A stretch of 64,000 nucleotides of DNA, taken from the NCBI GenBank assembly GCA_963714015.1, contig OY970223.1:192001-256000 (forward strand). The letters run 5' to 3'. The notes beneath the pieces were generated by a model that was given only the letters and a program-made list of their open reading frames with translations, was not told the origin of the DNA and did not search any database. Position 1 is the stretch's first letter. The number at the start of each line of letters is the position of its first letter. The stretch is from Vulcanimicrobiota bacterium (GTDB lineage: Bacteria > Vulcanimicrobiota > Vulcanimicrobiia > Vulcanimicrobiales > Vulcanimicrobiaceae). Below, piece after piece: positions 5,236-28,763 of the stretch. The translations under genes and the position numbers were made by a program.

Positions 5236-6547
5236 TCAAACGGCGTTGGCAAGTGAGATCTGTTCGTTGAGTACGCTTCGACCGATTCCGCGATAAAGTA
5301 ATCCCGCCGAGGCGATCCGTTCGGGATCCAGGAGATTGCGGCCGTCCACCACCAAACGCCCGCGCAGGCGCCCGGCATACTCGGCCGGGTCGATTGCCGC
5401 GAACATCGGCCATTCGGTGAGCACGAGCAGCGCGTCCGCATCGGTGACGGCCAGGGGCGAGTTGAGAACCTTGCAGGGAACGTTCATCGGAAGTGCATGC
5501 ACGCCCGGATCGTACGCTTGCAGCGTCGCACCGCGCGCCGCCAAGTCGCGAATAATGCGCAGAGCCAGCGAGTCGCGGACGTCGTTAGTACCCGCTTTGA
5601 ACGCGAGTCCCCAAATGCCGATCGTTCGTCCCGCGAGATCCCCGAGTTCCGCCTCCAGCGCTTGGACGACGACGTTCGGCTGCCGATCGTTTACTTCTAG
5701 AATCGCAGTGAGCAAAGAGCGGCCGGCGCCCAAACGGGTGGCGACGTGATGCAGGCTTTTCACGTCTTTTTCGAAGCAAGGGCCGCCGAAACCGATTCCC
5801 GGATTCAGAAACAACGACCCGATACGCTTGTCGTAGCCGACGCCGCGCAGCACGTCGTCGGCGCTGGCGTCGGTCTTGGCGCAAAAGTTCGCGACTTCGT
5901 TCGCGAAGTCTGATCTTGAGCGCCAAGAATGCATTGGACCACCCTTTGATCAGCTCCGCTTCCCGTAATTCCGTGATCAAGATCGGGCGGTGCAGCGCCT
6001 CGAAGAGCCGCGCATACGCGATTGCCGCTCCGTTGCGCCGGCAGCCGATCACGATGCGATCGGGATGCAGAAAATCGTTGAGGGCCGTGCCCTCGCGCAG
6101 GAATTCCGGATGGTAGAGGACCGTGTGCCGGCCATGCAGCCGCCGTTCGATCAGATCGCTGGTCCCGACCGGGACCGTGGAACGAACGACGACGATCGAC
6201 CACTTCGGAAGCTGCGCGTCCAAAATGGCTTGAATCGCCGCATCGAGCCCGCTTAAATCCGCCGAACCGTCCTCGGATGCGGGCGTCCCCACCGTCAGGA
6301 CGATGAAGCGCGCACCCTCGAGCGCCGATGCGGGATCGTCTACGAATGAAATGCGGTCCGAGGCGAGATGTTTGTGCAGCATCTCGGTAATACCGGCCTC
6401 GTGGTACGGCGTAACGCCCGCACGCAGTCCGGCGATCCTATCGCGCAGGACGTCGTAGCCGACGACTTTGCAGCCGAGTTCGGCGAAACCGATTGCGGAA
6501 GCCATGCCGACGTAACCCGTGCCGACGATACAGATTTTGCTTTCCAT
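5236..6547 (-). CDS. ugd: UDP-glucose 6-dehydrogenase (1-nt frameshift near 5909)
   Basis: GTGYVG, PEFLREG, GFGGPCF, GLAFK motifs across two ORFs; removing one base restores LKISFANE. Confidence 0.9.
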
Positions 6548-9375: not shown

Positions 9376-9763
9376 CTAACGGCGTATGCTCAGGTGATAC
9401 TTCAGCGCTAAGCGCGCGCGCAAAAACATCGCACGAAACGGCGATCGCAGAGACGAACGGATTATGCGGCCGCCGCGCCGCACTTCGATGACGGTGCCCA
9501 GCAGCATCCGGGGGTCGACCGTTTCGCGAACGGTCACGCTCGCGTCTCCCGCCGTCAGCAGTGAGGCACCCGTTCCGACGAGCCGGTGAGCTGATCAGCA
9601 AATCGCGGTGTGCAAACACCACAACGTCACCGAAACGCGCCTTGCGATGCGGATCGACCAGCAGCTCGTCGCCGTCACGAATTCCCGGCGCCATACTCTT
9701 GCCGCTCAAACGCATGCGCCAAGGCTGCGTGGGACGTGCCATCGAGAGAACCTCGGCCAGCAT
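9376..9763 (-). CDS. S24/S26 signal-peptidase-like peptidase (1-nt frameshift near 9592)
   Basis: GKSMAP.I.DGD..LV...GDVVVF; after removing one base it reads LLIAHRLVG...TAGDA...LLGTV, the Ser/His S26 pattern. Confidence 0.75.
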
Positions 9764-9765
9764 TA

Positions 9766-10630
9766 CTACGCTACTGCGGATTCGGCGCCCGCGGTGAGCC
9801 GCCCGACGAGCTCGACGCTGTCCTGCGGCGCCCCTAGAGTCAAGGCGTAGAGCCGGCACTTCGAGAGCGCGTTGATCACGCGATCGACGACGCGCAGACG
9901 ATTGCTGTCGATCGTCGTTTGAATCTCGCTGCCGACGGCCATGAAAATCGCTTCCGAAAGCGGCAGTGGACGCGCGCGCGCGCTTCGTCCTCTGCCGACG
10001 ACAAAGAAGAAGGCCGTTCGCTTAGCGGTTGCCGCCCACTCGGAGGTCAGCGTTCCGGAGGGATCGACGCTCTCCCAATTCAGATCGAGCGACGTCAGTC
10101 CGAGCAGCCGCCGGGCGCCGGCGCGGACCGAAAACAGGCGCGGAAAAGCTTCGACTTCGTCGGTCGCGGTATTGACCAACGCAAACTCGTCCGACAGCGG
10201 ACGATTCTCCGGAGAGGCTGAGAATGAGCGCCATCGACGTGGTGCTCTTACCGCTCGTCGTCGGCCCGACTATCACCGCAGCCCGGTCGCCAAGCGCCAC
10301 CGCTCCGGCGTGAAAGACCACAAGTTCCGGACGCAGACGGAAAATGCGCGCGTTGATGGCAAGCATCGCGCGCCCTTCGATCGACGCGGGCGAGAGCCGC
10401 CCCGAGGCAAACGGTTCGTCGTCGAACACGCGGATGAACTCGTCGCCGATCAAAACGCCGGCGGATCGCCCGTGCGTGATAATATACGCGCTAAGTACCG
10501 GATCCGCTGTCGAACGGTTCAGCATGCGCGCATACCGGCGCTCGATAAGCTCGGTAACGCGGTCGTCGTCACACCCAATTTGGACGGGAATGCCCGCGAT
10601 CGATAGGCGTGCGATGACCGAACCCTCCGC
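9766..10630 (-). CDS. HPr-kinase-related P-loop protein (frameshift near 10200; start codon uncertain)
   Basis: FHAGAV...IVGPTTSGKSTT then LSDEFALV...FPR across two ORFs; frame is open up to about 10630. Confidence 0.7.
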
Positions 10631-10636
10631 TCAGTC

Positions 10637-10897
10637 CTACGCTACGACTTCTCGAACCAAACCTTGCTCGATGAAGACATGCATGATGTCGCTCACGTCC
10701 TGATCGACGTCGTGGCCATCCGCGTCATAACAGGTGCGCAGATAGTCGCCGAGCTCTCCAGCCGTCTTCCCCGAACAGTTCCGCAGCAAGTCGGCCGCGG
10801 TTTGATTGACCACGTGAACTTTTTCACGCGCGGAATCGTACACGAGCATCTCGGTGCCGACTTCGCGCATCTCCAAACCTTCGATCGCTTGAAACAT
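10637..10897 (-). CDS. PqqD family RiPP recognition element (RRE)
   Basis: 86 aa: REVG.EMLVYD...VH.VN.TA...L...Y......DV.......GLV; AGGA RBS. Confidence 0.85.
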   Translation of the reverse strand: MFQAIEGLEMREVGTEMLVYDSAREKVHVVNQTAADLLRNCSGKTAGELGDYLRTCYDADGHDVDQDVSDIMHVFIEQGLVREVVA

Positions 10898-10906
10898 TCC
10901 TAATCC

Positions 10907-11050
10907 TTACTGATGAGTGATGTCACATTGCGGATTCGGCGGGCCTTGCTCGAAGCAGATGATCGACGCAAAGCCGGATGCATCTTTGAACAAATCGCGC
11001 ACGTCGACCGTGTCGACAATCGCCGGCCGGGCATATTCGGATTTTTGCAT
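10907..11050 (-). CDS. Putative RiPP precursor peptide, 47 aa: MQKSEYARPAIVDTVDVRDLFKDASGFASIICFEQGPPNPQCDITHQ
   Basis: Read manually on the minus strand; GAGGT RBS 9 nt upstream; YxxP leader motif; stop 9 nt before the PqqD start. Confidence 0.75.
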   Translation of the reverse strand: MQKSEYARPAIVDTVDVRDLFKDASGFASIICFEQGPPNPQCDITHQ

Positions 11051-11248
11051 TACGAACATACCTCAGGCGGAGAGCAAAAATTGCCGGAGACTTCGGCGAA
11101 TAATGCTGAGAGATCGAAGCTGGCTACCAGAGCCGGTCTCGAATAGCGCATGGCGGTGGTCCTTTCCGGGCTTTCTCTTATTCTATCTGCGAGCAACCAA
11201 GGTCCAAAGTGCAGGAAGACACTTCGAGCACCGTGCCGTCGGCTTCAT

Positions 11249-12049
11249 CTACGTATAAGCCAACGAGCCTACGCGTCTGGAGTAACGCACCGAAAAAACG
11301 AAGAGCGCAAGAGCCAAAGGAATCCCCACTGCCGCAAAGCCGCCGAGAATGAGCAGGTTGCCGCCCAGCTCGGGCAAGCTCGCCCCGCGCAGCACCGCTT
11401 CGCGCAGCGCCGATAGGCCGTGCGTTATCGGAAAGACTGCCGAGAGCAGTTTCAAGGGCGCAGGCAGCGCGGCGATGGGAAAATATACGCCTCCCAGGAC
11501 GTTGGTGAGGCTCGCAACCATTGCGACGGCCGCGTCTCCCTGCTTGAACGCGATGACGGATGCGGCTGCGCAGATGCCGATCGGGGAGATGGCCAGCATA
11601 GAGAGCACGAGGACGACGGTCGCCGACAACGCGTTGGCGTGGTGGAGGTTGACCCCAAAGACCGAGGCGCCGACGATCAGGAAGAGCACGGCCTGCACCG
11701 CCGTGAAGATGAAAGCCGACGCCGCCGCGCCGGAGACGAATGCCGGCACGGAAGCCCGCGAAACCAGAATAGCCTCGAGCGTGCCCGACGATTGATCCCG
11801 GCGAATCGCGGATGCAAACGAGTGCAGCGCTACCGACTGAAATCGCGCAAACACAATGCCGATGAGCACGAACTCGAAGTACGGACCGTGAATGGATTTG
11901 AGCGCGCTCGAACTGGATCCGAAGGTCTTGCCGATAAAGAACATCATTGCGCACATGATCAGAACGGATGCGAGTTGCCCGACGACGGCAAACTTCGACA
12001 TCGTCTGAAACGCCCAATCGCGGCAGATGAACGCGGCGAGGATGCGCAT
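11249..12049 (-). CDS. ABC-2 type exporter permease
   Basis: GTLE.ILVS, GGVYFPI..LP, about 6 TMs; follows the ABC ATPase. Confidence 0.85.
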   Translation of the reverse strand: MRILAAFICRDWAFQTMSKFAVVGQLASVLIMCAMMFFIGKTFGSSSSALKSIHGPYFEFVLIGIVFARFQSVALHSFASAIRRDQSSGTLEAILVSRASVPAFVSGAAASAFIFTAVQAVLFLIVGASVFGVNLHHANALSATVVLVLSMLAISPIGICAAASVIAFKQGDAAVAMVASLTNVLGGVYFPIAALPAPLKLLSAVFPITHGLSALREAVLRGASLPELGGNLLILGGFAAVGIPLALALFVFSVRYSRRVGSLAYT

Positions 12050-12840
12050 CAGCCGACGCCTCCGGCGACGTGGCGGAAGTATCCGAACAAGGGATGCTCG
12101 CGCGTTCCGGCGGGCGCCTTCGCCTCGATTTCAATTGGTGTTCCGACCGCCGCGACGCGGCGTTCGTGAAGAATCGCCATTCGATCGCACATGGACCACG
12201 CCTCGTCGAGCTGATTGGTAGCGAGCAGGACGGTCTTGCGCTCCTGAACGACGAGCCGATCGCGCACCGATTGCCGGAAGTTCAACGCGGCAATCGGATC
12301 GAGGGCCTTCGTCGGCTCGTCGAGCAGCAGGATCGGCGGATCGGCCACCATCGCTCGAATCAGCGCCAGGCGCTGCTTCATGCCGGTGCTGAACGATCGC
12401 ACGCTGGAGTGCATGCGATCGGCGATGCCAAGCCACTCGGCCAGTTCCGAGATGCGCTTTTTCGAGGCACGCTCGCTCAGACCGTTGAGGCGCGCAAAAA
12501 ACGCCATGTTGTCCCAGGCGCTCAAGCGCATGTAGTACGCCCGCTCGTCGGAACTGCAAATCCCGATCGATGCGCGTGCCGGTGCGGCTTGTTTGTCGGC
12601 GTCGTATCCGAGGACGCTCACGCTGCCGGTATCGGGAATGATCAGCGTGGAGATGATCTTCAGCAGCGTCGTCTTTCCCGCCCCGTTGATTCCCAGCACG
12701 CCGAAGCATTCGCCTCTGTGGATCGTGAGCGAAACGTCGTCCAACGCCGGGCGGCGCTCGCGCCGGCGGAAGAGTTGCTTCACGCCTTGGTCGACGGGGT
12801 AGGCCTTGCTCACCCCGCGGACTTCGATCGCCTCAAGCAT
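12049..12840 (-). CDS. ABC transporter ATP-binding protein
   Basis: GINGAGKTT, FSTGMKQR, LLLDEPT. Confidence 0.9.
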   Translation of the reverse strand: MLEAIEVRGVSKAYPVDQGVKQLFRRRERRPALDDVSLTIHRGECFGVLGINGAGKTTLLKIISTLIIPDTGSVSVLGYDADKQAAPARASIGICSSDERAYYMRLSAWDNMAFFARLNGLSERASKKRISELAEWLGIADRMHSSVRSFSTGMKQRLALIRAMVADPPILLLDEPTKALDPIAALNFRQSVRDRLVVQERKTVLLATNQLDEAWSMCDRMAILHERRVAAVGTPIEIEAKAPAGTREHPLFGYFRHVAGGVG

Positions 12841-13978
12841 GATGGATGAACGGAGCCGCCGCGCGGCGCAGACCGCCCGCCAAACGCTTTGCGAGCGGCG
12901 GACGTTTGTCGAATTCTTCAAACTCCACGGAGCCGAAGTTTTGTTTGAGCAGGTGCAACCGTTCTCCGAGGCGCTCCATCCAGAAAAGACGCATCAGCGT
13001 GCGGTGGCCTTCGCCGCCGGTGAGCACCCGCGACTGTCCGATGCGCGTAGCGGAACGCGAGAGCAGCCCGCCGCGCAGTCTTTGAAGCCGCGAGAGCGCG
13101 CGCTCGTCTATGCCGGCATCGAGCAGCCAGTGCGCGAGCTCGATCGCCGGAACGGCGACTTGTGCGGTATTGCTCGCGCGCACGCGCTCTTCGAAGACGT
13201 TCCAATCGATGCCCCGGCGCAAAACTTCGGCGATGTCGACGATGCCGCGGACGTGTCCATCGAAGCCGTTCCCCCAAGCAAGGTGCACCGCGAGATGCAG
13301 CAGCTGGTCCTCCGGATCGAGAACGTGAACGGGAACGCCTGCGGCCATGGCGGCGACGGCCCGCGCGCGCATCGCCGCGACGTCGATTCGAAAAGGATTC
13401 GGCCGGCGGCCTAGATCCCAGTGCAGTTCGATGCAGAAAGACGCGCCCGGACGAGCGTAGCGCGGGAGCTGGTAGTAGTTGACGAAGTACCATTCACGCG
13501 TGTGCGGCGTCGGTTCAGAACGATAGCCGAGGTCTTCGAGCACGCGTTCGGCGCGGTCCAGATCTTCGATCGGAAGCAGAACGTCGAGATCGCAGAAAGC
13601 GCGCAAGCCGATGTCGCCGTACAAGTTCTCTACGAGCGCGACGCCTTTGAGCACTACCGGTGCCAAATCGTCGCGCGCGAAGGCCCGCAGCACTTCTCCG
13701 GCGCGCTGCAGATACACCGCGTTGAGCGCAACGGTTTTCTGTCTGGCCAAACGCAACTGCTCGCGCACCGGCTGCGGTATCGGCGCGTAGGGCGCGGCAT
13801 CGGCCGACCGCGAGAGCAGCGGCAGCAGATGATGCCGGCGCGCCTCTTGAATTACCCGTTCCCACGAATCGACGCCGCGCGCTGCCGACGCGACCGCCGA
13901 CGGATCGGCGTCCAGTCGAGCGCACGCGAGCATGAATTTTCGCTCGCCCGTGAGCGTGCGCGCTAAACGCCGGTGCAT
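12833..13978 (-). CDS. Nucleotidyltransferase family protein (NTP_transf_5-like)
   Basis: VVLKG..L...Y....LR.F.DLDVL, IELHW, HL..H, DI motifs. Confidence 0.85.
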   Translation of the reverse strand: MHRRLARTLTGERKFMLACARLDADPSAVASAARGVDSWERVIQEARRHHLLPLLSRSADAAPYAPIPQPVREQLRLARQKTVALNAVYLQRAGEVLRAFARDDLAPVVLKGVALVENLYGDIGLRAFCDLDVLLPIEDLDRAERVLEDLGYRSEPTPHTREWYFVNYYQLPRYARPGASFCIELHWDLGRRPNPFRIDVAAMRARAVAAMAAGVPVHVLDPEDQLLHLAVHLAWGNGFDGHVRGIVDIAEVLRRGIDWNVFEERVRASNTAQVAVPAIELAHWLLDAGIDERALSRLQRLRGGLLSRSATRIGQSRVLTGGEGHRTLMRLFWMERLGERLHLLKQNFGSVEFEEFDKRPPLAKRLAGGLRRAAAPFIHHA

Positions 13979-13996
13979 AGAGAAATCTCCCGGTGC

Positions 13997-14665
13997 TTAG
14001 ATGAGGCCTGCCCGAACCGCATGCACCGCGGCTTGAGATCTCGCCGTGATGCTGAGTTTCGAGAAGATGTGGCTCACGTGATTCTTGACGGTCTTGTCGG
14101 ACAGGCGCAGCTGCTCGCTGATCTCTTTGTTCGAGAGTCCTTGCGCGATCAGACGAATCACCTCGTTTTCTCGCTGCGTCAGTTCGTACATGTGCGCGCG
14201 GCTGGTCGACGAGCGGCGGCGCAACAGTTCACCGGCGATTCGGGGATCGACGTACGAGCCGCCGGTCGCGATGATCTTGAGCGCCCGAATGAGCTCCTTG
14301 GGAGCGATGTCCTTGATGATATAGCCGTTCGCTCCGGCCGAGAGTCCACGCTGTAAAACCTCGGGCTGCAACTGGGTGGAGAGCAGGCAAATCTTCACCG
14401 CGGGAACCTCGCGGCCGCACGATGCGATCGCCTCGTCCATCTTCAGTATCTGCCCATCGACGTCGAAAACGATCAAATCCGGTACCAACGACCGCAAAGC
14501 GACCTTCTCAAGCGACTCGGCATCGCCGACGATTTCCAGTTCGGAGTCCAGCGAGAGCAACTGACAAAGCGCCTTGGCGAAGATTCCTTGTCCGGCGACG
14601 ACTACCACTCGCGTTGGGCGGGGGGCGGCTTCCGTATCGTTGACTCTTACTGCCGTAGCGGTCAT
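13997..14665 (-). CDS. NarL/LuxR-type response regulator
   Basis: Receiver domain (PDLIVFD, GA.GYIIK) and HTH (LT.RE.EV..LIAQG.SNKEI...L.LS.KTVKNH); GGAGG RBS. Confidence 0.9.
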   Translation of the reverse strand: MTATAVRVNDTEAAPRPTRVVVVAGQGIFAKALCQLLSLDSELEIVGDAESLEKVALRSLVPDLIVFDVDGQILKMDEAIASCGREVPAVKICLLSTQLQPEVLQRGLSAGANGYIIKDIAPKELIRALKIIATGGSYVDPRIAGELLRRRSSTSRAHMYELTQRENEVIRLIAQGLSNKEISEQLRLSDKTVKNHVSHIFSKLSITARSQAAVHAVRAGLI

Positions 14666-14882
14666 AGCAAACCTCCGTCTGCTTCATAGCAAACCATCGT
14701 ACTAAAGGCTTTCACTCGCCGATAGAACGGCGAGTTGTGACGCAAATCATGCCACACCGAAAAGCCCATAGCCATCCCGCTTTCGCGGGATTTTTTGGGA
14801 AAAGGGACTAAAATATCGACGATTCTCCGGGCCATTCGCTCCCCCGCGTCCCGGTCCCACGGCATTGCGGACCATTTGCTCA

Positions 14883-14900
14883 TGAGCGATCTGTCGCTCA
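14883..14900. promoter_or_regulatory. 7-4-7 inverted repeat TGAGCGA-TCTG-TCGCTCA in the divergent promoter region
   Basis: Perfect 7-bp arms between the regulator gene and the second HPr-kinase-like gene. Confidence 0.35.
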
Positions 14901-14955
14901 CGCACGATGCGCTTCGAACGTTATGATACATTCAGACCTGCGTCATGGAGTAACC

Positions 14956-15837
14956 GTGTCCGAAACATTACAGTATCGCATCGTCGACGTCGACATCGCC
15001 ATCGAAGCGCCCGCCGAGATTCTCTCGATCATCGTAGAGTCGTACCGGCGGTTTCCTATGACGAAGAATCGCACGCACCCGCATGTAACCGTCAGGGCGT
15101 CGCTCGTAGACGACGGTCAACTCGCCTTAACCATCGGTAACGTTCACTACAAAAACCTTTCCGCCGCTGCCGGCCATGGGCTGATCGGACTAGAACTTTC
15201 GAACGCGATCATCACCGGCGTAGCCGGGCATTCGCGTTTCATGATTCTCCACGCCGCGGCCGTCGAACGCGACGGGCAGGCGCTGTGCATCGCCGCAAGC
15301 GGCCACACCGGAAAGACGCTGCTGGCCTCGCACCTGGTTTCCCGCGGCTGGAGAGTCCTGAGCGACGAGTACGCTTTCATCGAACCGGCCGGCGGCCGTG
15401 TCGTCCCGTTTCCGAAGCTGCTGTACGTGCGATCGTCCTCACTTCCGCATATCCCGCGAAGCTTTCGCAAATGCGTTGAATCGTCGCCGTGGTACGGCAT
15501 GGGCGACTGGCCCGGTCTGGTGTTCTCCGGCGTCGATCCGGCGGACAGCTATTCCGAGGCAATTTGGTCGCAAGGCGCCCGGTTATCGCGCCTGCTCGTG
15601 ATGATTGAACGCAACGCTTCGGGACCTGCGATTACGCCCTGTAAACCTTGGTCGCTCATACCGGACCTCAACAGTTTGGTGTGGCAGCCTCCGGATTTAC
15701 TGGATGGTTTATCACGAATCGCCTCTGCGCTGCGCGGCGTCGAAGTCGCTCGAGTCGTTGCCGGAGATCCGATTCGCACCGTGAACGCGATCGAGCGCTG
15801 GGCGCTGCCCGAGAGTCAGGTTTTGCTGCATGCCTAA
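14956..15837 (+). CDS. Second HPr-kinase-related P-loop protein
   Basis: LHAAAVERDG.A......GHTGKT.L...L...GW.VLSDE...PFP; GTG start with GGAG RBS. Confidence 0.75.
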   Translation: MSETLQYRIVDVDIAIEAPAEILSIIVESYRRFPMTKNRTHPHVTVRASLVDDGQLALTIGNVHYKNLSAAAGHGLIGLELSNAIITGVAGHSRFMILHAAAVERDGQALCIAASGHTGKTLLASHLVSRGWRVLSDEYAFIEPAGGRVVPFPKLLYVRSSSLPHIPRSFRKCVESSPWYGMGDWPGLVFSGVDPADSYSEAIWSQGARLSRLLVMIERNASGPAITPCKPWSLIPDLNSLVWQPPDLLDGLSRIASALRGVEVARVVAGDPIRTVNAIERWALPESQVLLHA

Positions 15838-16393
15838 GCGCGGCATCGCGCGCGGGGTTCTCAAACTCGCGCAGGATGCCGGCTTCTTTGCGCGCCTTTT
15901 CCGTTACGATCTTTTCATCGGAACCCGCGAGGGACTCGCGAAAATCAGCCCCGGCGTCACCGCGACGGGTGAGGTCGCGGTCCGCTTGGGAAGACGCGTG
16001 TATTTAGGCCGCAACGGCGTGTTTCAGGGAACGGGCGAGATCTCGATCGGAAGCGGAACCTACGTCGGGAATTACTTCGACTTCAACTGCCGGACTTCGA
16101 TCGCGATCGGCGAGAATTGCATGTTCGGAAACTTCGTGTCGATCGTCGATAACAATCACGGCACCGATCCCGCGAGCGACATGAAAGAGCAGCCTTTCGA
16201 GGTCGCCCCAGTCGTCGTAAGGCGCAACTGCTGGATCGGCGAGAAAGCCACACTCCTCGCCGGCGTTACGCTGAACGAGAACGTCATTGTCGCCGCCGGC
16301 TCGGTCGTGACGCGCGACGTTCCGGCGAACGCGATCGTCGCGGGCGTTCCGGCGCGGGTCTTGCGGCTGCGAGCGGCCAGCGCGGCCAGCTGA
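15830..16393 (+). CDS. Hexapeptide-repeat O-acyltransferase
   Basis: IG..C..G, D.NH, WIG.....GV......VAAGSVVTRDVP.N.IVAGVPAR. Confidence 0.85.
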   Translation: MPKRGIARGVLKLAQDAGFFARLFRYDLFIGTREGLAKISPGVTATGEVAVRLGRRVYLGRNGVFQGTGEISIGSGTYVGNYFDFNCRTSIAIGENCMFGNFVSIVDNNHGTDPASDMKEQPFEVAPVVVRRNCWIGEKATLLAGVTLNENVIVAAGSVVTRDVPANAIVAGVPARVLRLRAASAAS

Positions 16394-17989
16394 ATGCAGG
16401 CCAAGCACCACAGCGCCAAGCAAGTCTTTCTGAATACGTTCGCCGGCCTTGCCAGCAACGGCGGTTCGGCGATCGTCGGGTTGATCGTCACGCCGCTGCT
16501 GATCGCAAAGCTCGGCGTAGAACAGTTCGGATTTTGGGCGGTCGTTACCGCAATGGTCAACTACGCGGGCCTGCTGGACGGCGGGCTGAACAGCACCTTT
16601 ATGAAATACGTGGCGGAATACGCCGCTCGTAACGAGACGGCGCGAATCCGCCAAGTTACGACGTTCGGCACGGCATTCTACGTCGTGCTGGGTCTGCTGA
16701 TAGCACCGGCGGCCGCCGCTGCTGCGCCGTACGCGATCGGCGTGATGCACCTCGATCCCGGCCTTGCGCGCCGCGGACCGATGATTTTCGGATATGTCGT
16801 GCTCTCGCTTTTTCTGACTAGTGCGGCCGGCGCGATCGCATCGGTGCTCAGCGGCTTCGGCAAGCTGCGTACCGTCTGGACGAGTAATTTTCTAAGCCGT
16901 ACCGTCTTTTCGATAGCCGCCCTAATCGCGTGCACCTTAGGCTTCGGACTGGACGGCATGGTGTTCGCCACGTTCGCGCAGCTCGCGGTTTTTGCCGGCA
17001 TAACCTACATCGCAGCACGGCGCCTGTTCGGCCCGCTTTTCTGTCCGCCTTGGCAGTGGGAACGCAGCGTGATCGCCGGCCTCTTCAAGCTGGGCGGCTG
17101 GGTTCAGGTAACGAACACGTGCAGCACGATTGTGGTTGAGAGCAACCGTTTCATCATCTCGGCATTCGTTTCAACCTCGGCCGTTACGTACTTTGAGGTC
17201 GCCAGCCGTTTGACTCGCGCCGCACGCTCGTTGCCTTTCAACTTCATCGTGGCGCTGCTGCCGGCCGTTTCGGCGCGCAACGCCTCGCTGCCCGACGACC
17301 GCTTCAACGAGACCTACGTGCGCGCAAGCCGCTACGTCAATTACGCAACGCTCTTTCTCGTGGGCTTCATCATCGCGGCCGGTACGCCGATCTCGTACGT
17401 CTGGATCGGAACGGTCTATCCGGACATCGGCGTGATCTGCGCGTGCGTCGGGCTTTCGTTCATCTTCATCAACGCGACCATGGTCGGAACGACGATGCTG
17501 CGCGCCGTCGCGCTAGCCCGTTATGAAGCGTATTACTACATCGTCTGGACCGTTGCCAGCATCGCGCTGATGATTGCGACGGTACCGTTCTTTGGTCTCA
17601 TGGGCGTGCTCGCAGGAATCGCGGGCGGAGCAGCCATAGGGACGGTCTACTTCTTGCGCGTGCTGCACGGTTTGCGCCGCTTGGACGTCCGGAGTGGTTT
17701 GCTGAATTGGGCCGTCCCGCTTTGCGTCATTGCGGCTGCGTCGATCGCCGGCACGGCCTTTGCCGCCGCCCATTTGGCGCCGCACTTTCACGGACGCGTG
17801 CAGTGCGCGCTGGAAGTGCTCATCTTGGGCGTGCTCTACGTCGTGCTCTTTGCAGCCGGAACACTCGCGTCGCGCTTCTTCGGGCCCTCCGATTGGGAGG
17901 TCGCCCGCCGCGTGCTTCCCGGGCCAATCGCCTCATTTGGGCGTAGGCAAAGCGTCTCTGCCGGGTCCGAAGGCGTCTTGATACGGTGA
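16394..17989 (+). CDS. Wzx-like polysaccharide flippase
   Basis: TP.LI.KLG.EQFG.W, D.GL, about 12-14 TMs. Confidence 0.8.
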   Translation: MQAKHHSAKQVFLNTFAGLASNGGSAIVGLIVTPLLIAKLGVEQFGFWAVVTAMVNYAGLLDGGLNSTFMKYVAEYAARNETARIRQVTTFGTAFYVVLGLLIAPAAAAAAPYAIGVMHLDPGLARRGPMIFGYVVLSLFLTSAAGAIASVLSGFGKLRTVWTSNFLSRTVFSIAALIACTLGFGLDGMVFATFAQLAVFAGITYIAARRLFGPLFCPPWQWERSVIAGLFKLGGWVQVTNTCSTIVVESNRFIISAFVSTSAVTYFEVASRLTRAARSLPFNFIVALLPAVSARNASLPDDRFNETYVRASRYVNYATLFLVGFIIAAGTPISYVWIGTVYPDIGVICACVGLSFIFINATMVGTTMLRAVALARYEAYYYIVWTVASIALMIATVPFFGLMGVLAGIAGGAAIGTVYFLRVLHGLRRLDVRSGLLNWAVPLCVIAAASIAGTAFAAAHLAPHFHGRVQCALEVLILGVLYVVLFAAGTLASRFFGPSDWEVARRVLPGPIASFGRRQSVSAGSEGVLIR

Positions 17990-18846
17990 GAGCGATGAAA
18001 CTCAGCGTGGTGATTCCAACCAAGAACTGTGTCGAGCTCATGCGGCGAACGCTCGCGGCGCTCGACTTTGCGGACGAAATCGTCGTCGTGGATATGTTTT
18101 CTACCGACGGCACCGCCGAGCTGGTGCAGGCGCACCCCAAAGGGCGGCTGATCCAGCGCAACGGGCACATTTACGAAAACGTGAACCATGGCTTCGATGC
18201 GGCAACCGGCGACTGGCTGCTGCGCTTGGATTCCGATGAAGTAGCGACTCCTGAGATGGGACGCGAAATTCGGGAACGCATCGAAACCGCTCCCGCGGAT
18301 CTATGCGGTTTCTACATTCCGAATCGCACCTATTACTCCAACCGCTGGCTGCGGTACGGCCCCGCGTACGACGAACGTTCGCCAATCCCCGGAGAGCGCT
18401 TCCGCTTGAGCCTGTTCCGCAAAGGCGCCGGGCGGTATGAATCCGAGCTCTCGCATGCCGATCTCACCGTGCACGGCCGCTGCGAGTATCTGAAGCACCG
18501 CTACGATCACTATTCGGTTCGATCGTTCTCGCACTACATTGCGAAGAACAACTACTACACCGACATGGACACCGAGCGAATGGAGAGCGGCGAATTGGAC
18601 CCTCGCCGGGAAGCCTGGGCGATGCTCTGGGGACCGCTCAAAGAGTTTCTGGTCTTCTTCATCAAGCGCAAAGGGTACAAGGACGGCGCCCTCGGGATCG
18701 TCGCATGCGGCGGTTACGCTATCCTGCGCTTTATGATCCACGCCAAACGCTGGGAGCGGCTAACGGCGCAGCAGAACGAGGTCGAGGATCTCGACAAGCG
18801 CAAGATGCTCGAATACGTGCCGGCAAGCCACGTCACGAACGCCTAA
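17986..18846 (+). CDS. Glycosyltransferase family 2
   Basis: SVVIPTKN, VVD.FSTDGT, LDSDE, GYKDG. Confidence 0.9.
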   Translation: MRAMKLSVVIPTKNCVELMRRTLAALDFADEIVVVDMFSTDGTAELVQAHPKGRLIQRNGHIYENVNHGFDAATGDWLLRLDSDEVATPEMGREIRERIETAPADLCGFYIPNRTYYSNRWLRYGPAYDERSPIPGERFRLSLFRKGAGRYESELSHADLTVHGRCEYLKHRYDHYSVRSFSHYIAKNNYYTDMDTERMESGELDPRREAWAMLWGPLKEFLVFFIKRKGYKDGALGIVACGGYAILRFMIHAKRWERLTAQQNEVEDLDKRKMLEYVPASHVTNA

Positions 18847-20399
18847 GAGCGTTTGATCCAAAGCAGCATCGCGTCGGGACGCTCGCGCGGAAGCACGATC
18901 GGTATCTGACGCACGCAACAGCCGACGGAATCGGAAAGTTCGAGCGCGTCGTGCATGTCGCCCAACAGATAAGCGTTCGTCCGTAGCGGTATCGAGGATG
19001 CGTTCTGCGCGACAAGCTGCATTCGCACGTCCGGAGAAAGATAGAACGCCAAATCGAGCGCGTCCGCCCAGCGACCCGAGGATTGCGGAACGATCACGAG
19101 CGCATTGCGTGTCGCGTCGAGGGGCTTGCTGTCCGCAAGGACCCAGCCGTTGAAGTCGTTGTCCCACCACACCGGCGCGCGCAGGCCCGTATAGCCGCAG
19201 AGCGCTCCTGCCGCCATGAGCAGCGCTGCGGCGCCGATCCAAGCCGAACGCGGCGCGCCCTCATGCCTGCGGATCTCGAAGGCAAGGTATCCGGCGACGC
19301 ATACGATGAGCATCAGCCAGATCGGCGTCCCGTACCGCGGCACGGTCGAGCGATGATCGTGCAGCACGAGGTCCGAGATGACGAGCGCAAGTACGGGAAC
19401 CGCCAGGAGCGCCGCGATCATCGTCCGATTTGCTGCCCCGCTTCGCGCGACGCACCAGTAGATCGCCGCACAGACCAGCAGCGCCAAAGGCAAGAGCATG
19501 AGCGCAGCTTTACCGTGCGCGTACTGCAGGTCGAAAAAGGTCGCGCCCGCTTCGAACGTCCAGCTCTTCAAGTACCAGACCAGCGGCCAAGCACCGGCAC
19601 TCCACGAAAGCGAATCCGCTAAGCCGGTGCGCGTGCGAGCGATGACGACCGCCCACGGAATGAATGCGGCAATGGCGATGCAGGCCGCTATGGCGAAGCG
19701 GCGCAGATCGGAGGCGCGCAACCGAAACGCGGCGTAAACGGCATGCGCGGCAAGCGTAATCACAAAAAGGCCGTCGGTGTACATTCCCAACACCGCGACG
19801 ACGCCGTACAGAATCCACCACCGCGGCCTTCCTGTCCGCTGCGCCCGCAATAGCGCCGCGGTTGCGACTGCGAATAGCAGCGCCCAGAGACTATATTCCT
19901 TTGCCTGCTGCGAATACACGATCAGCATCGGCGAGACCGCCGCAAGTGAAAAGCCGAGCAGCGCCGCGAGTCTATTTCCGAAGATCTCCAAGCACAGCCA
20001 GCCCGCGGCAAACGGGACGAGCAATCCGAAGATCAGCGCCGGCAAGCGCAGGCTGACGATCGACGTGCCCGCAATACGCGTCCATAACGCGGAGACCACG
20101 TAGTACAGCGGCGGATGTTTCGCGTCTTCAGCGGCAAGCGACGAGACCGTCTTACTAATAGGCTCCCGCTCGCTGCTGCGCCCGGCGAACGCCAGCACTT
20201 CAGCCGCAGTCGCGGTTCGGCCTTGCAACGCATCCAAGAATTCGCTGCGGGTGTGGCCCGCAATGCGAAGAGCGGTGACGGCTTCGTCGCTCCAAAAGAG
20301 GCGCGAATGTTCGCCGGCGACGCGCAGCGCGAAACCGCCCAGCGCAAATGCCGCGCAGATTGCGACCAGCGCGAAGAGCGCGGGATTAAGCCGCGGCAC
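18843..20399 (-). CDS. GT-C fold glycosyltransferase (GT39/PMT-like)
   Basis: FWSDE, HPPLYY, LRLP, SP...YSQ.A..Y, multi-TM. Confidence 0.75.
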   Translation of the reverse strand: MPRLNPALFALVAICAAFALGGFALRVAGEHSRLFWSDEAVTALRIAGHTRSEFLDALQGRTATAAEVLAFAGRSSEREPISKTVSSLAAEDAKHPPLYYVVSALWTRIAGTSIVSLRLPALIFGLLVPFAAGWLCLEIFGNRLAALLGFSLAAVSPMLIVYSQQAKEYSLWALLFAVATAALLRAQRTGRPRWWILYGVVAVLGMYTDGLFVITLAAHAVYAAFRLRASDLRRFAIAACIAIAAFIPWAVVIARTRTGLADSLSWSAGAWPLVWYLKSWTFEAGATFFDLQYAHGKAALMLLPLALLVCAAIYWCVARSGAANRTMIAALLAVPVLALVISDLVLHDHRSTVPRYGTPIWLMLIVCVAGYLAFEIRRHEGAPRSAWIGAAALLMAAGALCGYTGLRAPVWWDNDFNGWVLADSKPLDATRNALVIVPQSSGRWADALDLAFYLSPDVRMQLVAQNASSIPLRTNAYLLGDMHDALELSDSVGCCVRQIPIVLPRERPDAMLLWIKRS

Positions 20400-21693: not shown

Positions 21694-23358
21694 CTAAAGG
21701 GCCCAGCTCCCGAAGGATTGGTAACGGGGATCGTTCACCCAGGAGCCGCTCGTGGTAGACCCCAGGCCGATCGCGCTATATGAGCCGCCGCCGTCGTCGC
21801 CGTCCCAGATGCTGGCGTTGACGATACATGCGATCTGGGGATCGGCAAAAGCCGTGCCGTACGCGAGCGACATGTCGAGCGCGGCGACCTGCGGATCCTC
21901 GGACCACGCATCGTTTTGGTCGCTGGCAAAACCGGATTCGGTCAGGCAGATTTTGACCCCCGAATCGTTATTGGCGTTCGCGATCGCCTCGATGCCTTTG
22001 TAGTTCTGCCATTGTCCTTCGAACGTGGGTCCCCAGTACACCGTCGGGTCCATCTGCCAGGCGAAGTTGTGAATCGAAATCCCGTCCCAACAGTTTCCGG
22101 TGCGGCATCCGGCTGCGTAGATGTTCGTCATATCGCTGAACATGTTCGTGTGCTCGCCGCCGCCGTTGGCTAGCGCCGGGCCGTAGACGAATAGGCTGGG
22201 ATCGTTCGCCTTTACGGCCGCATAACCGGCTCGGAGGAAGGCGGCAATTCCGGGTCCGGTATCCGAATCGTAGAACCAATAGCTTTGGTTCGGCTCGTTC
22301 AACAGCTCGACTTGGGTGATCTGCGGAAGGTTCTGCTGCGCCATCTGCTGGTTATGCTGCACGATCCATTGCGTCACCGTTCCGGCGTACGTACCGTAGT
22401 CCGAAACGTTTGCAAAGGCTTTGTTCATGCCGACCGTCTGCTGAAATCTCGTTCCGCCATACTGGAGAATAATAGGAAACATCGAGATGCCGTGCTGCGC
22501 CAAATGCGTGGCGATGTAGTCGTAAGTGGTCCAGTTTGCGTCTAGGCCGTTGAGATTGCCTTGCAAGCCGCCCCAAATGAACGAAGCCTGAATCTCTACG
22601 CGGGCACACGTCGCGCCGGCGTTCGCCGCGGCTTGTTCCGCTGAATCGATGAGCGCGTTCGCCGGACCGTTCGGAATGTTTTGGCACGGATTCTGGTCAC
22701 AATTGCGGATTGTTTGCTCCTGCAACGTCCACGTGTGCCCCATGACGCAGTAGCGGCTGCGCGGCGACGGCGGATGGTTCACCTGCGGCATGGGAACGGG
22801 CGACTGCGTCGTCACGTTGAACGTTGCACCATTGGTCGTGATAGTGTACATGACCCCGGGCGTGCGGCGCCAGCGAATGCCGACGCTGTTGGCGCCGACG
22901 CCGCCGTAAGCGTAAACGGTTTCGGAAGGCGAGACACTGGCGACGGTTTGAACCGGGCCTTTTGCCAAGTGCAGAATGAGCGGCGCGTCATAAGGAACTG
23001 CCGACGCGTTGGAAACGGGTGCGCACACGCTCGGGCCGGTTTGCACGCACGCCGACAAAACGCCGAACGGCGTCGGTACTGCCGAAGGCGTCGGCACCGG
23101 ACTGGCGGTCGGAGACGGCGTGTGATATGGCGATCCGGTCGGGTACGGCGTGTGAAACGGCGATCCGGTCGGGTACGGCGTGCGGTACGGTGAGGGCGAA
23201 ACGGATGGACGAGGCGTCGGAGTGCCGCTCGCGATGCCGGTGCCTCCTTGCGCACTGTTCGCGGGAGGTGTAAGTCCGCCGCCTGCGCCTCCGCAAGCGG
23301 TTAGCGCTGCAGCCGAAACGGCCAAGAGCAGCGCGAAAGCGGAACCATTGATTTTCAC
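21694..23358 (-). CDS. Clan GH-A (GH39/GH5-like) glycoside hydrolase lipoprotein with Pro/Thr linker
   Basis: Lipobox LTAC; E..NEPN acid/base, DGIS.H, LTE.G nucleophile. Confidence 0.7.
   Translation of the reverse strand: MKINGSAFALLLAVSAAALTACGGAGGGLTPPANSAQGGTGIASGTPTPRPSVSPSPYRTPYPTGSPFHTPYPTGSPYHTPSPTASPVPTPSAVPTPFGVLSACVQTGPSVCAPVSNASAVPYDAPLILHLAKGPVQTVASVSPSETVYAYGGVGANSVGIRWRRTPGVMYTITTNGATFNVTTQSPVPMPQVNHPPSPRSRYCVMGHTWTLQEQTIRNCDQNPCQNIPNGPANALIDSAEQAAANAGATCARVEIQASFIWGGLQGNLNGLDANWTTYDYIATHLAQHGISMFPIILQYGGTRFQQTVGMNKAFANVSDYGTYAGTVTQWIVQHNQQMAQQNLPQITQVELLNEPNQSYWFYDSDTGPGIAAFLRAGYAAVKANDPSLFVYGPALANGGGEHTNMFSDMTNIYAAGCRTGNCWDGISIHNFAWQMDPTVYWGPTFEGQWQNYKGIEAIANANNDSGVKICLTESGFASDQNDAWSEDPQVAALDMSLAYGTAFADPQIACIVNASIWDGDDGGGSYSAIGLGSTTSGSWVNDPRYQSFGSWAL
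23115..23190. repeat. 30-bp coding tandem repeat, about 2.5 copies (P[Y/F][H/R]TPYPTGS)
   Basis: acggcgtgtga.a.ggcgatccggtcgggt at 23115 and 23145, partial copy at 23175. Confidence 0.8.
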
Positions 23359-23495: not shown

Positions 23496-24668
23496 CTACG
23501 GTAACGTAGCGGACGCCGTGGCGCCGTGCGCCGCGAATTTTGCAAACACCTGGTAGCGCTCATTCGGTACGAAACGATCGTCTTGCAGCGTTCCCAAACC
23601 AATTGCGCCGAAGGGGCCGCCGCCGTCGTCGCCATTCCAAATGCTCGCATTGACGATACACGCAACCTGCGGATCGGCGGCGGAAATCGCGTACGCTTGC
23701 GCCATATGCTGCGCAGCAACGGCGGGGTCTTCGCCCCACGAGGCGTCCCCGCTCGCGAATCCGGTTTCCGTTAGACAGATCTTTACGCCGCGATCGCCGT
23801 TCGCCGCAGCGATCGCTTCAGCGCCGCGATAGTTTAGCCACTGATTTTCGTAGTCGGGGCCACGGTACTCTTGAGGATTCGTTCGCCAAGCAAAGTTGTG
23901 CACCGAGATCCCGTCCCAGCACACGCCCCTTCTGCAACCCGCGGCGTACAAGCCGCTCAAAATGGCAAACATGTTCGTGTGATGGCGGCCGCCGTCGGCA
24001 AGCCCCGGTGCGAAAACGAACAGATCCGGATCCGCCGATTTTACCGCTGCGTATCCGGCTTTCAGGAACTGCGCGATCGTGGGCGCGTCGTCGGGCTGCA
24101 TGAACCAGTAGCTTTGATTCGGTTCGTTCATCAGTTCGACGCGCGTAATCTGCGGCAAGTGCTCGCCGGCCATCTCGCCGTTGTGGCGGAGGATCCAATT
24201 CGTGACGGTGCGCGCAAACTCAGCGTAATCGCCGGCGCTCGTAAACGCACGGTTTCCACCATCGGCGGTGGGAACGAAGCGCGCGCCGCCGTACTGCAGG
24301 ATGATCGGAAACATGGCAATGCCATGCTGCGCGAGATGATCGGCGATGTAATCGTAGCGCCCGAAGCCGGCGCGATCCCCGCTCAAGCTCCCCTGCAGAC
24401 CGCCCCAAATGAATGAAGCCTGAATCTCCACCCGGGCGCACGTTGCGCCGGCTTGGGCGGCCGCTTCTTCGGCCGAGTCGATCGCCGCATTGCGCGACTC
24501 CACGGGAACGTTTTGGTTTCCGACGCGCATTGTCTGCTCTTGCAGCGTCCAGGAATGTCCCATGACGCAGTAGCGTCCCGCCGAAGACGCCGTCGTCACG
24601 GGAGCGGCGCTGGTGGGTGCAAGCGAAAGTAGCAACGCAACGGCGGCCGCGAACACCGCCGCTTTCAT
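23496..24668 (-). CDS. Secreted clan GH-A glycoside hydrolase, paralog of 21694-23358
   Basis: Signal peptide; NEPN and CLTETG motifs; long identical stretches shared with the neighbour. Confidence 0.7.
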   Translation of the reverse strand: MKAAVFAAAVALLLSLAPTSAAPVTTASSAGRYCVMGHSWTLQEQTMRVGNQNVPVESRNAAIDSAEEAAAQAGATCARVEIQASFIWGGLQGSLSGDRAGFGRYDYIADHLAQHGIAMFPIILQYGGARFVPTADGGNRAFTSAGDYAEFARTVTNWILRHNGEMAGEHLPQITRVELMNEPNQSYWFMQPDDAPTIAQFLKAGYAAVKSADPDLFVFAPGLADGGRHHTNMFAILSGLYAAGCRRGVCWDGISVHNFAWRTNPQEYRGPDYENQWLNYRGAEAIAAANGDRGVKICLTETGFASGDASWGEDPAVAAQHMAQAYAISAADPQVACIVNASIWNGDDGGGPFGAIGLGTLQDDRFVPNERYQVFAKFAAHGATASATLP

Positions 24669-27639: not shown

Positions 27640-28763
27640 AGTTTCTGAACAGTCTTCCGCTGCGCAATGCGTATACCGTCGTGCGAAGCCGCTCGCCGCT
27701 GCGCATCAGACTTCTGCGGCGGCGGCACCGACGTTCCGCCGTATCCGGAAAAGTTCGGCGGCTGCGTGCTCTCGTGCACGATCGACAAATACGCTTACGT
27801 TTCCGTACGGCCGTATGTGAACAGCAAGATTCACGTCATCTCCGAGGATCAAGGGCTGGACATTTACTTCGAGCCCAACGGCGGAGATCGGCTCGAAGGA
27901 CGCCTCGATTTGGCTCAGGCGATCTTCCGGCGGTTTTCGAGCGTCGGACTGGAGTGCCACATTGCAGCCGACGCGCCGCCCGGAAGCGGACTCGGGTCGT
28001 CTTCGAGCATGATCGTCGCGCTCATCGAGGCGCTCTGCCGCGAGCAGGGCGTAACGCTTTCGAAGTATCAGAAGGCCGAGCTCGCCTTTCAAATCGAGCG
28101 CGGGGATCTCGGAATCGTCGGCGGGATGCAGGATCAATATGCGGCTTCGTTCGGCGGCTTCAATTTCATCGAGTTCGACCGCAACGGCGTCTACGTGACG
28201 CCGCTTGCGCTGCAGCCCCGAACTGCTCTCCGAACTGCATTATCATCTGCTGCTGTGCTATACCGGGACGACGCGCGTCTCCAGCAACATTCTTGCCGAG
28301 CAAACCGCCAACGTCGTTCAAGAGCGGGCCGGAAGTCATGGACAGCCTGGCAGGCATGAAACAGCTGGCTCATGCGCTCAAACGGGCGTTTCTGAAAGCG
28401 CAGTTCCTCGACTTCGGACACCTGCTCGACGAGGCATGGGCCCTCAAGCGCGGCTTGGCGTCCGCAATCACCAATCCTCATATCGAGGAGCTGTACGATA
28501 CCGCGAAGACTGCAGGGGCAATCGGCGGCAAGATCCTCGGCGCCGGGGGCGGCGGGCATTTGCTGCTCTTCACGCCGTTCAACAAACGGGGAAAGGTTCG
28601 CGGCGCGCTCGAGGCGGCCGGCGCGCGCATCATCGACTTCCAGTTCGAGGATCAGGGCGCTACGAGCTGGGTGACGACGGACGAAACGTGGGCGCCGGCA
28701 ATTCATCCGGCATCGCCTTCGAACGGAGCTCGCAAAGGGGATCTCGTCCAAGCGCCGTCATGA
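27636..28763 (+). CDS. hddA: GHMP sugar kinase, D,D-heptose-7-phosphate kinase-like (three frameshifts)
   Basis: PLRI(S)F.GGGTD, PPGSGLGSSS, G.QDQYAA.FGGFN, GGKILGAGGGG. Confidence 0.75.
   Translation: MKFLNSLPLRNAYTVVRSRSPLRIRLLRRRHRRSAVSGKVRRLRALVHDRQIRLRFRTAVCEQQDSRHLRGSRAGHLLRAQRRRSARRTPRFGSGDLPAVFERRTGVPHCSRRAARKRTRVVFEHDRRAHRGALPRAGRNAFEVSEGRARLSNRARGSRNRRRDAGSICGFVRRLQFHRVRPQRRLRDAACAAAPNCSPNCIIICCCAIPGRRASPATFLPSKPPTSFKSGPEVMDSLAGMKQLAHALKRAFLKAQFLDFGHLLDEAWALKRGLASAITNPHIEELYDTAKTAGAIGGKILGAGGGGHLLLFTPFNKRGKVRGALEAAGARIIDFQFEDQGATSWVTTDETWAPAIHPASPSNGARKGDLVQAPS

Follow-up and report, generated by a model that had tools for sequence, protein, structure and literature searches.

Among described pathways, the closest to the locus considered here are those of the linear polyphosphorylated peptides (LPPs) of Bacillota, for example lppA-K-B-S-D-N of Paenibacillus alginolyticus DSM5050, in which a RiPP recognition element (RRE; RiPP, peptide that ribosomes synthesize and that is post-translationally modified) presents the YxxP leader of the precursor, an HprK-like kinase polyphosphorylates Ser3 of the core, and a SipW-type peptidase cuts the leader off (Popov et al., Nat Commun 2026, PMC13381572). 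The same account reports that LppK adds one to four phosphates to core Ser3 in a heterologous host, that N33 and D70 of LppB hold the leader, and that leader removal by LppS requires LppB, the S29A, H68A, and D93A variants of LppS being inactive; it calls LPPs restricted to Bacillota (PMC13381572). We analyzed a 64,000-nucleotide stretch of a Vulcanimicrobiota bacterium genome (assembly GCA_963714015.1, contig OY970223.1, positions 192,001 to 256,000; hereafter the window), in which positions 9,376 to 15,837 carry two short peptides, a PqqD-type RRE, two HprK-like kinases, an S26-type peptidase, a nucleotidyltransferase, and an ATP-binding cassette (ABC) exporter. Our analysis indicates that this locus is probably an LPP-type RiPP cluster, in a form specific to Vulcanimicrobiota/Eremiobacterota.

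A second group of relatives comprises the phosphorylated or phosphoglycosylated lasso peptides, namely paeninodin (kinase PadeK), pseudomycoidin (PsmK/PsmN), and Bsf of Bradymonas sediminis (BsfK), whose kinases are described as targeting the C-terminal Ser or, in Bsf, core Ser3 (PMC8498205, PMC10368454). A first-pass annotation of the window had proposed a non-lasso, RRE-dependent RiPP made by the RRE, the kinases, the nucleotidyltransferase, the S26 peptidase, and the ABC exporter; the same logic has been demonstrated experimentally for the Bacillota LPPs (PMC13381572), and our analysis suggests that it applies here. The annotation's further remark that no characterised product was known is overtaken by the report in 2026 of a polyphosphorylated, leader-cleaved intermediate carrying one to four phosphates at core Ser3 (PMC13381572).

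Gene content of the cassette and its likeness to the LPP system

ORF (open reading frame) calling and family searches recovered every gene listed in the first-pass annotation, with unchanged coordinates, and added a second precursor, peptide A, to the single one that it had named. The features and their predicted identities are as follows.

13997..14665, minus strand: NarL/LuxR-type response regulator, first gene of the minus-strand run; GerE 1.9e-20
12833..13978, minus strand: PF14907 NTP_transf_5 nucleotidyltransferase, LppN-like; 1.6e-52, 179 bits
12049..12921, minus strand: ABC exporter ATPase, DrrA-like; ABC_tran 3.9e-31, TIGR01188 drrA 1.9e-59 (below cut-off)
11249..12049, minus strand: ABC-2 type permease, its start overlapping the ATPase stop; ABC2_membrane 5.2e-17
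11050..11151, minus strand: precursor peptide A, 33 aa, MRYSRPALVASFDLSALFAEVSGNFCSPPEVCS; profile E 1.4e-13
10907..11050, minus strand: precursor peptide B, 47 aa, MQKSEYARPAIVDTVDVRDLFKDASGFASIICFEQGPPNPQCDITHQ; profile E 9.6e-16
10637..10897, minus strand: discrete RRE of the PqqD family, LppB-like; PF05402 6.7e-9, TIGR04353 and lasso_PqqD below cut-offs
9766..10615, minus strand: HprK-like kinase, paralogue beta (HprK1); TIGR04352 1.7e-4 on an N-terminal piece
9376..9763, minus strand: SipW/SEC11-type (S26B) signal-peptidase-like leader peptidase, LppS-like, without a membrane anchor; PF00717 4.3e-8, TIGR02228 0.0011
14923..15837, plus strand: HprK-like kinase, paralogue alpha (HprK2); TIGR04352 5.3e-17, 61.8 bits against a cut-off of 200
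14666..14922, no strand: divergent intergenic region between the regulator-led cassette operon and the operon of HprK-alpha and exopolysaccharide (EPS) genes, placed by coordinates

Comparison with the LPP system revealed these likenesses: a discrete PqqD-type RRE, a TIGR04352-type kinase, a SipW-type Ser/His/Asp peptidase, a PF14907 protein, and ABC export, with no cyclase, together with an N-terminal YxxPx[VIL] leader, variable C-termini, a Ser near the start of the predicted core, and frequent placement in polysaccharide loci. Supplement file 1 of PMC13381572 annotates lppK with TIGR04352, lppS with TIGR02228, lppN with PF14907, and lppB as a discrete RRE, and these kinase, peptidase, and nucleotidyltransferase models are the ones best matched by the window proteins. 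The Ser/His/Asp motifs corresponding to the S29/H68/D93 triad of LppS are present in the window peptidase gene, where they are split by a frameshift at about 9589.

The locus also departs from LPP clusters as they are described. The window belongs to Vulcanimicrobiota/Eremiobacterota rather than Bacillota, and the names Eremiobacter, Vulcanimicrob, and Baltobacter do not occur in six text supplement files of PMC13381572. Where an LPP cluster has a single kinase, two paralogues are conserved here; most relatives, unlike LPP clusters, encode the peptidase and the nucleotidyltransferase as a fusion; the precursors are shorter (30-47 aa, with Cys-rich cores of 7-23 aa, against 35-200 aa); and orphan precursors are dispersed over the genomes, which also distinguishes them from LPP precursors.

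The phosphorylated lasso systems share with this locus a PF14907-type nucleotidyltransferase, at times fused to the leader peptidase, and ABC export. They differ in their Asn-synthetase-like cyclase and transglutaminase-like B2 protein, neither of which was found in the window's own genome, and in using a cysteine peptidase where a serine peptidase is predicted here. Among named models, the kinases and the RRE scored best with those of the NCBIfam HPr-rel-A system (TIGR04352 kinase A, TIGR04355 kinase B, TIGR04353 PqqD chaperone) and SynChlorMet ScmC (TIGR04249); every score of the present cassettes against the HPr-rel-A models was far under the curated cut-off, as in the 61.8 versus 200 bits listed above.

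Sixteen cassette loci were compared, the window and 15 relatives. In the relatives the canonical order was peptide(s)-HprK-HprK-S26::PF14907 fusion, followed by ABC ATPase, ABC-2 permease, and PqqD genes that were co-oriented or convergent. Most relatives carried the peptidase::nucleotidyltransferase fusion, whereas the window has separate genes; G242 (locus L091), a genome from the same family as that of the window, had the window's arrangement. The window ABC ATPase was 38-49% identical to the cassette ATPases of loci L022-L025 and its permease 35-37% identical to their permeases. Of the two kinases in the canonical cassettes, the first grouped with HprK2 and the second with HprK1, which argues that the divergently transcribed HprK2 gene is a genuine cassette member and that both paralogues are conserved.

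Both kinase groups retained the GK[ST] motif and the RG..L.SDE segment, and a profile of the alpha kinases matched HPr kinase/phosphatase 1ko7 (8.4e-7) over the P-loop and the RG..L..D[DE] segment; the nearest Atlas clusters were named HprK-related kinase A and ScmC. The peptidase Ser (G.SM.P), His (AHR), and Asp (GDA) residues (S37, H74, D89) were invariant in five fused relatives, and the transferase motifs KG...D.D and ELH, which do not vary among the fused relatives, can be read in the window protein as well. A profile of the fusion proteins matched the eukaryotic SEC11A/C catalytic subunits (SEC11A, 1.5e-4). Full-length matches to the peptidase::nucleotidyltransferase proteins came almost only from Vulcanimicrobiota/Eremiobacteraeota records or mislabelled metagenome-assembled genomes, proteins from other phyla matching the nucleotidyltransferase part alone.

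Two further HprK-like genes stand in tandem in the own genome, with an 89-aa ORF after them (C1:3236705-3238086; L015 9352-11126, minus strand), and are flanked by genes for an extracytoplasmic function (ECF) sigma factor and MauE/DoxX, thioredoxin-like, and SCO1 proteins. No PqqD/RRE, nucleotidyltransferase, or YxxP peptide gene lies near this pair, which was set aside.

In the RRE, residues N31 and D67 were invariant across six cassette proteins and, by position, may be the counterparts of N33 and D70 of LppB. A model of the RRE-leader complex, computed from an RRE alignment and a peptide alignment, gave an ipSAE of 0.42 (runs 0.41, 0.42, and 0.42) versus 0.01 for the best control, with contact agreement between runs of at least 98% and a partner pLDDT of at least 57. 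This is weak support for binding; the mark that was reached is also reached by 116 of 157 solved complexes and two of 215 mismatched pairs, and 18 of those 157 solved complexes, plus both mismatches, passed at an ipSAE of 0.60 or below. Since RRE-leader complexes have been solved (5v1v, 6jx3, 9x8z), the pass may moreover reflect likeness to, or memory of, these structures instead of binding by this copy.

As to the remaining genes of the run, the regulator matched Response_reg at 9e-7 and 29.5 bits, slightly under the 30.2 cut-off, and its MadR/NarL-type NCBIfam matches were below their respective cut-offs; LuxR regulators adjoin related peptides also in loci L101 and L073. The true start of the ABC ATPase may be an ATG at about 12840. 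The S26-like peptidase gene lies two genes away from the PqqD gene. The intergenic region 14666-14922 presumably serves as a shared promoter region, and an 89-aa ORF at 14662-14931 gave no match in family searches. Beyond the cassette, the minus-strand run goes on with a 329-aa lipoprotein-like ORF, Poly_export/SLBB, Bac_transf, a split UDP-glucose dehydrogenase, Wzz, and Wzy_C, and on the plus strand HprK2 is followed by a hexapeptide acetyltransferase, a Polysacc_synt_3 flippase, and a GT2 gene.

Precursor peptides, lasso genes and the proposed pathway

The stop codon of peptide A overlaps the start codon of peptide B (TAATG). If both precursors are cut after an invariant Gly, which is the inferred cleavage site and the basis for all core positions given here, peptide A has a leader ending at Gly23 and a core of 10 aa with two Cys, a Ser at +4, and a C-terminal Ser, and peptide B has a core of 21 aa with two Cys and a Ser at +3. 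The proposed kinase target would thus be the third core residue in peptide B and the fourth in peptide A, compared with core Ser3 in the LPP. An orthologue of peptide B with a conserved core is present in G242, which belongs to another genus, while the core of peptide A is not conserved there.

A strict pattern, Y.[RK]P.[LIVM], recovered a peptide in the window only, and the family was collected with a relaxed pattern and then a profile. Seven cassette-linked small ORFs aligned with invariant Tyr, Pro, and, at the leader end, Gly, giving the leader consensus MYxxPxIVASxDxxxxLxxAxG, and these seven related peptides made up the profile. Peptides A and B are two of its seven rows, so their matches in the own genome (1.1e-14 for the stronger, 6.2e-13 for peptide A) arise by construction. 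Among 301 sampled genomes of the class, a count that takes in the own genome and four unpublished genomes, 42 had profile matches (E <= 0.01), with up to eight per genome; by family, they were found in 28 of 263 f1 genomes, none of five f2 genomes, and 13 of 32 f3 genomes. A few of the weakest matches sit within very long ORFs and are probably false. The first-pass annotation had looked to conserved YxxP peptides beside homologous cassettes, and these were found in the relatives. Judged from the profile matches in 42 genomes and from the lack of lasso genes described below, the arrangement of the window cassette is more than chance.

The profile recovered 62 unique peptides from the fetched loci. 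Position -1 was Gly in all 62, and position -3 was Ala in 50, Val in nine, Thr in two, and Ser in one. The cores had 7-23 residues (median 12) and contained two Cys in 41 peptides, one in 15, and none in six. Every core contained a Ser, which stood at +3 or +4 in 41/62. Mean pairwise identity was 52% in the leader versus 13% in the first seven core residues. A C-terminal Ser, the target in paeninodin, was tried as a general kinase site and rejected, only seven of the 62 cores ending in Ser.

At 22 fetched peptide loci, mostly from family f3, there was no cassette gene within the stretch examined. The neighbours of these orphan loci had no modifying enzyme in common among the 92 of 131 ORFs within 3 kb that were scanned, a set without the shortest ORFs and some at the margins; in the flanks of the 15 related cassette loci, 83 of 109 called ORFs were scanned. 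In f3 genomes, a divergent pair of ABC_tran and PF16962 'putative ABC exporter' genes adjoins precursors, besides the ABC-2 exporter of the cassette (L024 12553-14891; L069 7991-10710; L070 5466-7804; L071 656-3132; L089 1160-3495), and its role could be that of a further exporter or of an immunity-like pump. In L066, L072, and L097, DUF4760 proteins, at times with Methyltransf_24 and DJ-1/PfpI genes, adjoin orphan or cassette-linked precursors.

The peptides could in principle be true lasso precursors whose cyclase and B2 peptidase are encoded elsewhere: the leader bears a motif of the YxxPxL type, which lasso RREs are reported to use (PMC10368454), Glu stands at positions 8 and 9 in the two window cores when the Gly is counted as residue 1, and Transglut_core3 occurs in 44 of the 301 genomes of the class and, by a comparison of tables, in 18 of the 42 peptide-positive ones. 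The genome searches argue in the other direction. As the first-pass annotation had stated, the window holds neither an Asn_synthase-type cyclase nor Transglut_core3, and extending the search to the whole 3.56-Mb own genome gave no match to Transglut_core3 (PF13471, B2) and no lasso cyclase. The sole strong match to PF00733/Asn_synthase there is AsnB-type, scoring 395 bits with TIGR01536 (cut-off 267) against 184.8 bits with the lasso cyclase model NF033535 (cut-off 525), and a weak second match is MnmA. The absence of lasso genes is not absolute, since the genome is estimated to be 89.6% complete. No PF13471 match was found in 24 of the 42 peptide-positive genomes, nor any Asn_synthase or Transglut_core3 match in the scanned flanks of the 22 orphan and 15 cassette loci. 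Counting the Gly as residue 1, 48 of the 62 family cores lack an Asp or Glu at positions 7-9 (14 have one) and would be unable to form a macrolactam ring of 7-9 residues. We therefore regard a lasso product as extremely improbable.

A separate observation concerns locus L094 (G043:C9), where a second set of genes lies at 12604-19095, about 10 kb from a cyclase-less cassette and beyond Bac_transf, udg, and C5-epimerase genes. It comprises a 180-aa PqqD protein (lasso_PqqD 4.1e-11), an HprK-like gene, a GT2 gene, a Transglut_core3 match, and a PF14907 domain, with no Asn_synthase seen; here two related peptide systems stand side by side, as has been described in Bacilli for LPP and paeninodin.

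Judged by homology to the LPP systems of Bacillota and to Bsf, the LPP-type pathway at this locus would run as follows. The two precursors (33 and 47 aa) would be translated with a leader that is conserved (M-Y-x-x-P-x-[IVL]-[IVL]-...-A-x-G) and a core that is hypervariable and rich in Cys, Ser, and Gly, and the discrete PqqD-type RRE would bind the leader at its YxxP segment. A core Ser, most likely that at +3/+4, would be phosphorylated, perhaps several times, by one or both of the HprK-like P-loop kinases (alpha and beta). The soluble SipW/SEC11-type Ser/His/Asp peptidase, assisted by the RRE, would then remove the leader, the likeliest cut being after the invariant Gly because this fits the small-residue rule at -1 and -3. 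The PF14907 nucleotidyltransferase may attach a further group to the phosphate, the group being a hexose in pseudomycoidin as described, and the ABC-2 exporter would pump the product out, where its two cysteines could form a disulfide. No macrolactam ring would be made.

Evidence against the LPP-type assignment, and frameshifts in two genes

Several observations weigh against this assignment. The scores of the kinase, RRE, and peptidase proteins, in the window and in its relatives, are all under the curated NCBIfam cut-offs; the best window scores were 61.8 versus 200 bits for the kinase and 18.7 versus 35 for the RRE, the relatives reached at most 50.1 and 31.0, respectively, and their TIGR02228 scores, from 2.9e-9 to 2.1e-4, were likewise under the cut-off. 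A profile of the six RREs matched LppB (9x8z_B) less well, with an E of 0.51, than PqqD (0.0014) and TfuB1 (0.015). Of the LPP motif YxxPxVLxHQxIxFETxxS, the leader has YxxPx[IVL][IVL] and no more, and it is about five residues longer between the Pro and the proposed cut. Neither +3 nor +4 is Ser in 21 of the 62 cores. The exporter is a two-component ABC-2/DrrAB-like system, unlike the MsbA-like fused protein of the LPP cluster (lppD, TIGR02204). Deletion of lppN is reported to be without effect in the characterised LPP system, where LppN may depend on a partner from outside the core cluster (PMC13381572). Finally, in this assembly, HprK1 and the S26-like gene each contain a 1-base insertion, at about 10213-10216 and about 9589, respectively, that breaks the frame relative to the intact G242 orthologues, both of which are single open frames.

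These insertions raise the question of whether the cassette is a decaying remnant, in which the genes of the beta kinase and of the leader peptidase have become pseudogenes, leaving this organism without a mature peptide. Such a reading gains from the position of the peptidase break, upstream of which lies the catalytic Ser and downstream the His and Asp, and from the lack of an ATG, GTG, or TTG start codon in HprK1. Yet both halves of each gene are well conserved with respect to G242, the two HprK1 pieces being 74% and 66% identical. The peptidase motifs in question are GKSMAPG (Ser), AHRLVG (His), and AGDAS (Asp). The missing canonical start is also common to G242: at the start of the conserved HprK1 protein, both genomes have an ATC preceded by a Shine-Dalgarno-like site, and this ATC, at 10615-10613, is the probable start codon.

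One contig of X1, a soil-metagenome run, lacks one letter at 10216. Removing this letter opens the HprK1 frame over 282 aa, and the product can then be aligned over its full length to the G242 orthologue, at 70% identity. The force of this observation is reduced by its source, a single contig at a depth of 2.4 that may itself be in error, from a run that may be the window's own sample. At the site near 9589, no listed contig bridges the break, and X1 record 3 begins at 9594 with nine unfitted letters. Runs X2 and X3 contained next to none of the stretch, matching only in conserved ABC and Bac_transf pieces from other organisms.

At least three further window genes look likewise split, among them UDP-glucose dehydrogenase, 3HCDH, and an epimerase fragment, and the single-contig genome is only 89.6% complete; for both reasons, an assembly rich in indel errors fits. 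Specifically, the UDP-glucose dehydrogenase is in two overlapping frames (5236-6547), a GHMP kinase is represented by its N-terminal part only (27667-28359), a 3-hydroxyacyl-CoA dehydrogenase is truncated (36525-37178), and the epimerase is a C-terminal fragment (40120-40503), all of which fits an indel-rich assembly. Both frameshifts are thus most likely assembly errors, the case being weaker for the peptidase gene than for HprK1, and decay of the cassette appears to us improbable. Independently of the window, the alpha-kinase orthologue of L091 (G242:C2, 11962-12982) is in two overlapping frames, and that assembly may have a frameshift of its own.

Polysaccharide genes and possible functions of the product

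In Bacilli, LPP and paeninodin clusters often lie within capsular polysaccharide loci, and lppB and espG are reported to rise together in stationary phase (PMC13381572). The window cassette has a comparable placement, between wza/Bac_transf and wzx/GT2 genes, and its alpha kinase heads an acetyltransferase-wzx-GT2 operon; G242 shows the same arrangement. The alpha kinase has thus apparently been relocated, in this lineage, to the head of the adjoining polysaccharide operon, which suggests co-regulation with polysaccharide. Clear polysaccharide genes were found within 5 kb in six of the 16 cassette loci, representing five genera (the window, L091, L023, L088, L094, and L102), and a single such gene in two more (GNVR in L101, GT87 in L022), the relatives' flanks having been covered as the 83 of 109 called ORFs scanned above. 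The remaining eight loci had none within that distance. The EPS linkage suspected in the first-pass annotation is thus recurrent, as in Bacilli, but not general.

Also inside the polysaccharide locus, on the minus strand at 21694-23358 and 23496-24668, are genes for two paralogous, apparently secreted proteins of 554 and 390 aa, which have a long conserved C-terminal region in common and no Pfam match.

It was proposed in the first-pass annotation that the peptide works with the polysaccharide, either as a primer or anchor bearing a phospho-sugar or as a signal that tunes synthesis via the LuxR regulator. The placement of the cassette and of the alpha kinase, the recurrence of polysaccharide genes, the capsular loci and lppB/espG co-rise of Bacilli, and the suggested partner of LppN outside the core cluster are all in keeping with such a role. 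On the other hand, half of the cassette loci have no polysaccharide gene within 5 kb, most dispersed precursors adjoin unrelated genes, and the locus counts overstate independence because the loci come from related genomes. On balance, we think this role rather unlikely.

The products may instead be competition or recognition peptides, bacteriocin-like or kin-signal-like, that are diversified by selection. The divergence of the cores relative to the leaders (13% versus 52% identity), the up to eight profile matches per genome, the 22 peptide loci without a cassette gene in the stretch examined, and the second ABC_tran and PF16962 ABC_export pair beside peptides in f3-type loci all point in this direction, and the phyletic patterns of LPPs are described as patchy, driven by horizontal gene transfer, and typical of conflict systems (PMC13381572). 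However, no immunity gene was identified in the window, and the core of peptide B is conserved across two genera, a pattern as compatible with a fixed target or receptor as with conflict. We hold a function of this kind to be possible but lean against it.

A more specific scheme joins several of these elements. In it, two specialised kinases of Eremiobacterota, one priming and the other extending the phosphate chain or handing it on, would serve a genome-wide, dispersed library of rapidly evolving Cys-rich precursors; in the window's lineage the system would be wired into the polysaccharide operon, and the PF14907 enzyme would use a sugar donor supplied by the adjoining EPS genes, yielding a phosphoglycosyl peptide attached to, or controlling, the exopolysaccharide. 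We offer this scheme as speculation, with a low probability of being correct; if true, the LPP family and its orphan nucleotidyltransferase would each gain a first function.

Taken together, the enzyme logic of this locus is already known from the LPPs, and what is new is the distinct form that it takes in Vulcanimicrobiota/Eremiobacterota. If the LPP-type assignment is right, this logic would extend, beyond the stated restriction to Bacillota, to a distant, uncultured, and little-studied soil phylum. The two kinases, the peptidase-nucleotidyltransferase fusion, the short cores capable of forming disulfides, and the dispersed precursors would provide independent comparative handles on the essential parts of the pathway, on the nucleotidyltransferase's role, and on the recurrence of these systems in polysaccharide loci, and mass spectrometry would be easier on the short cores than on the LPP core of 45 residues.

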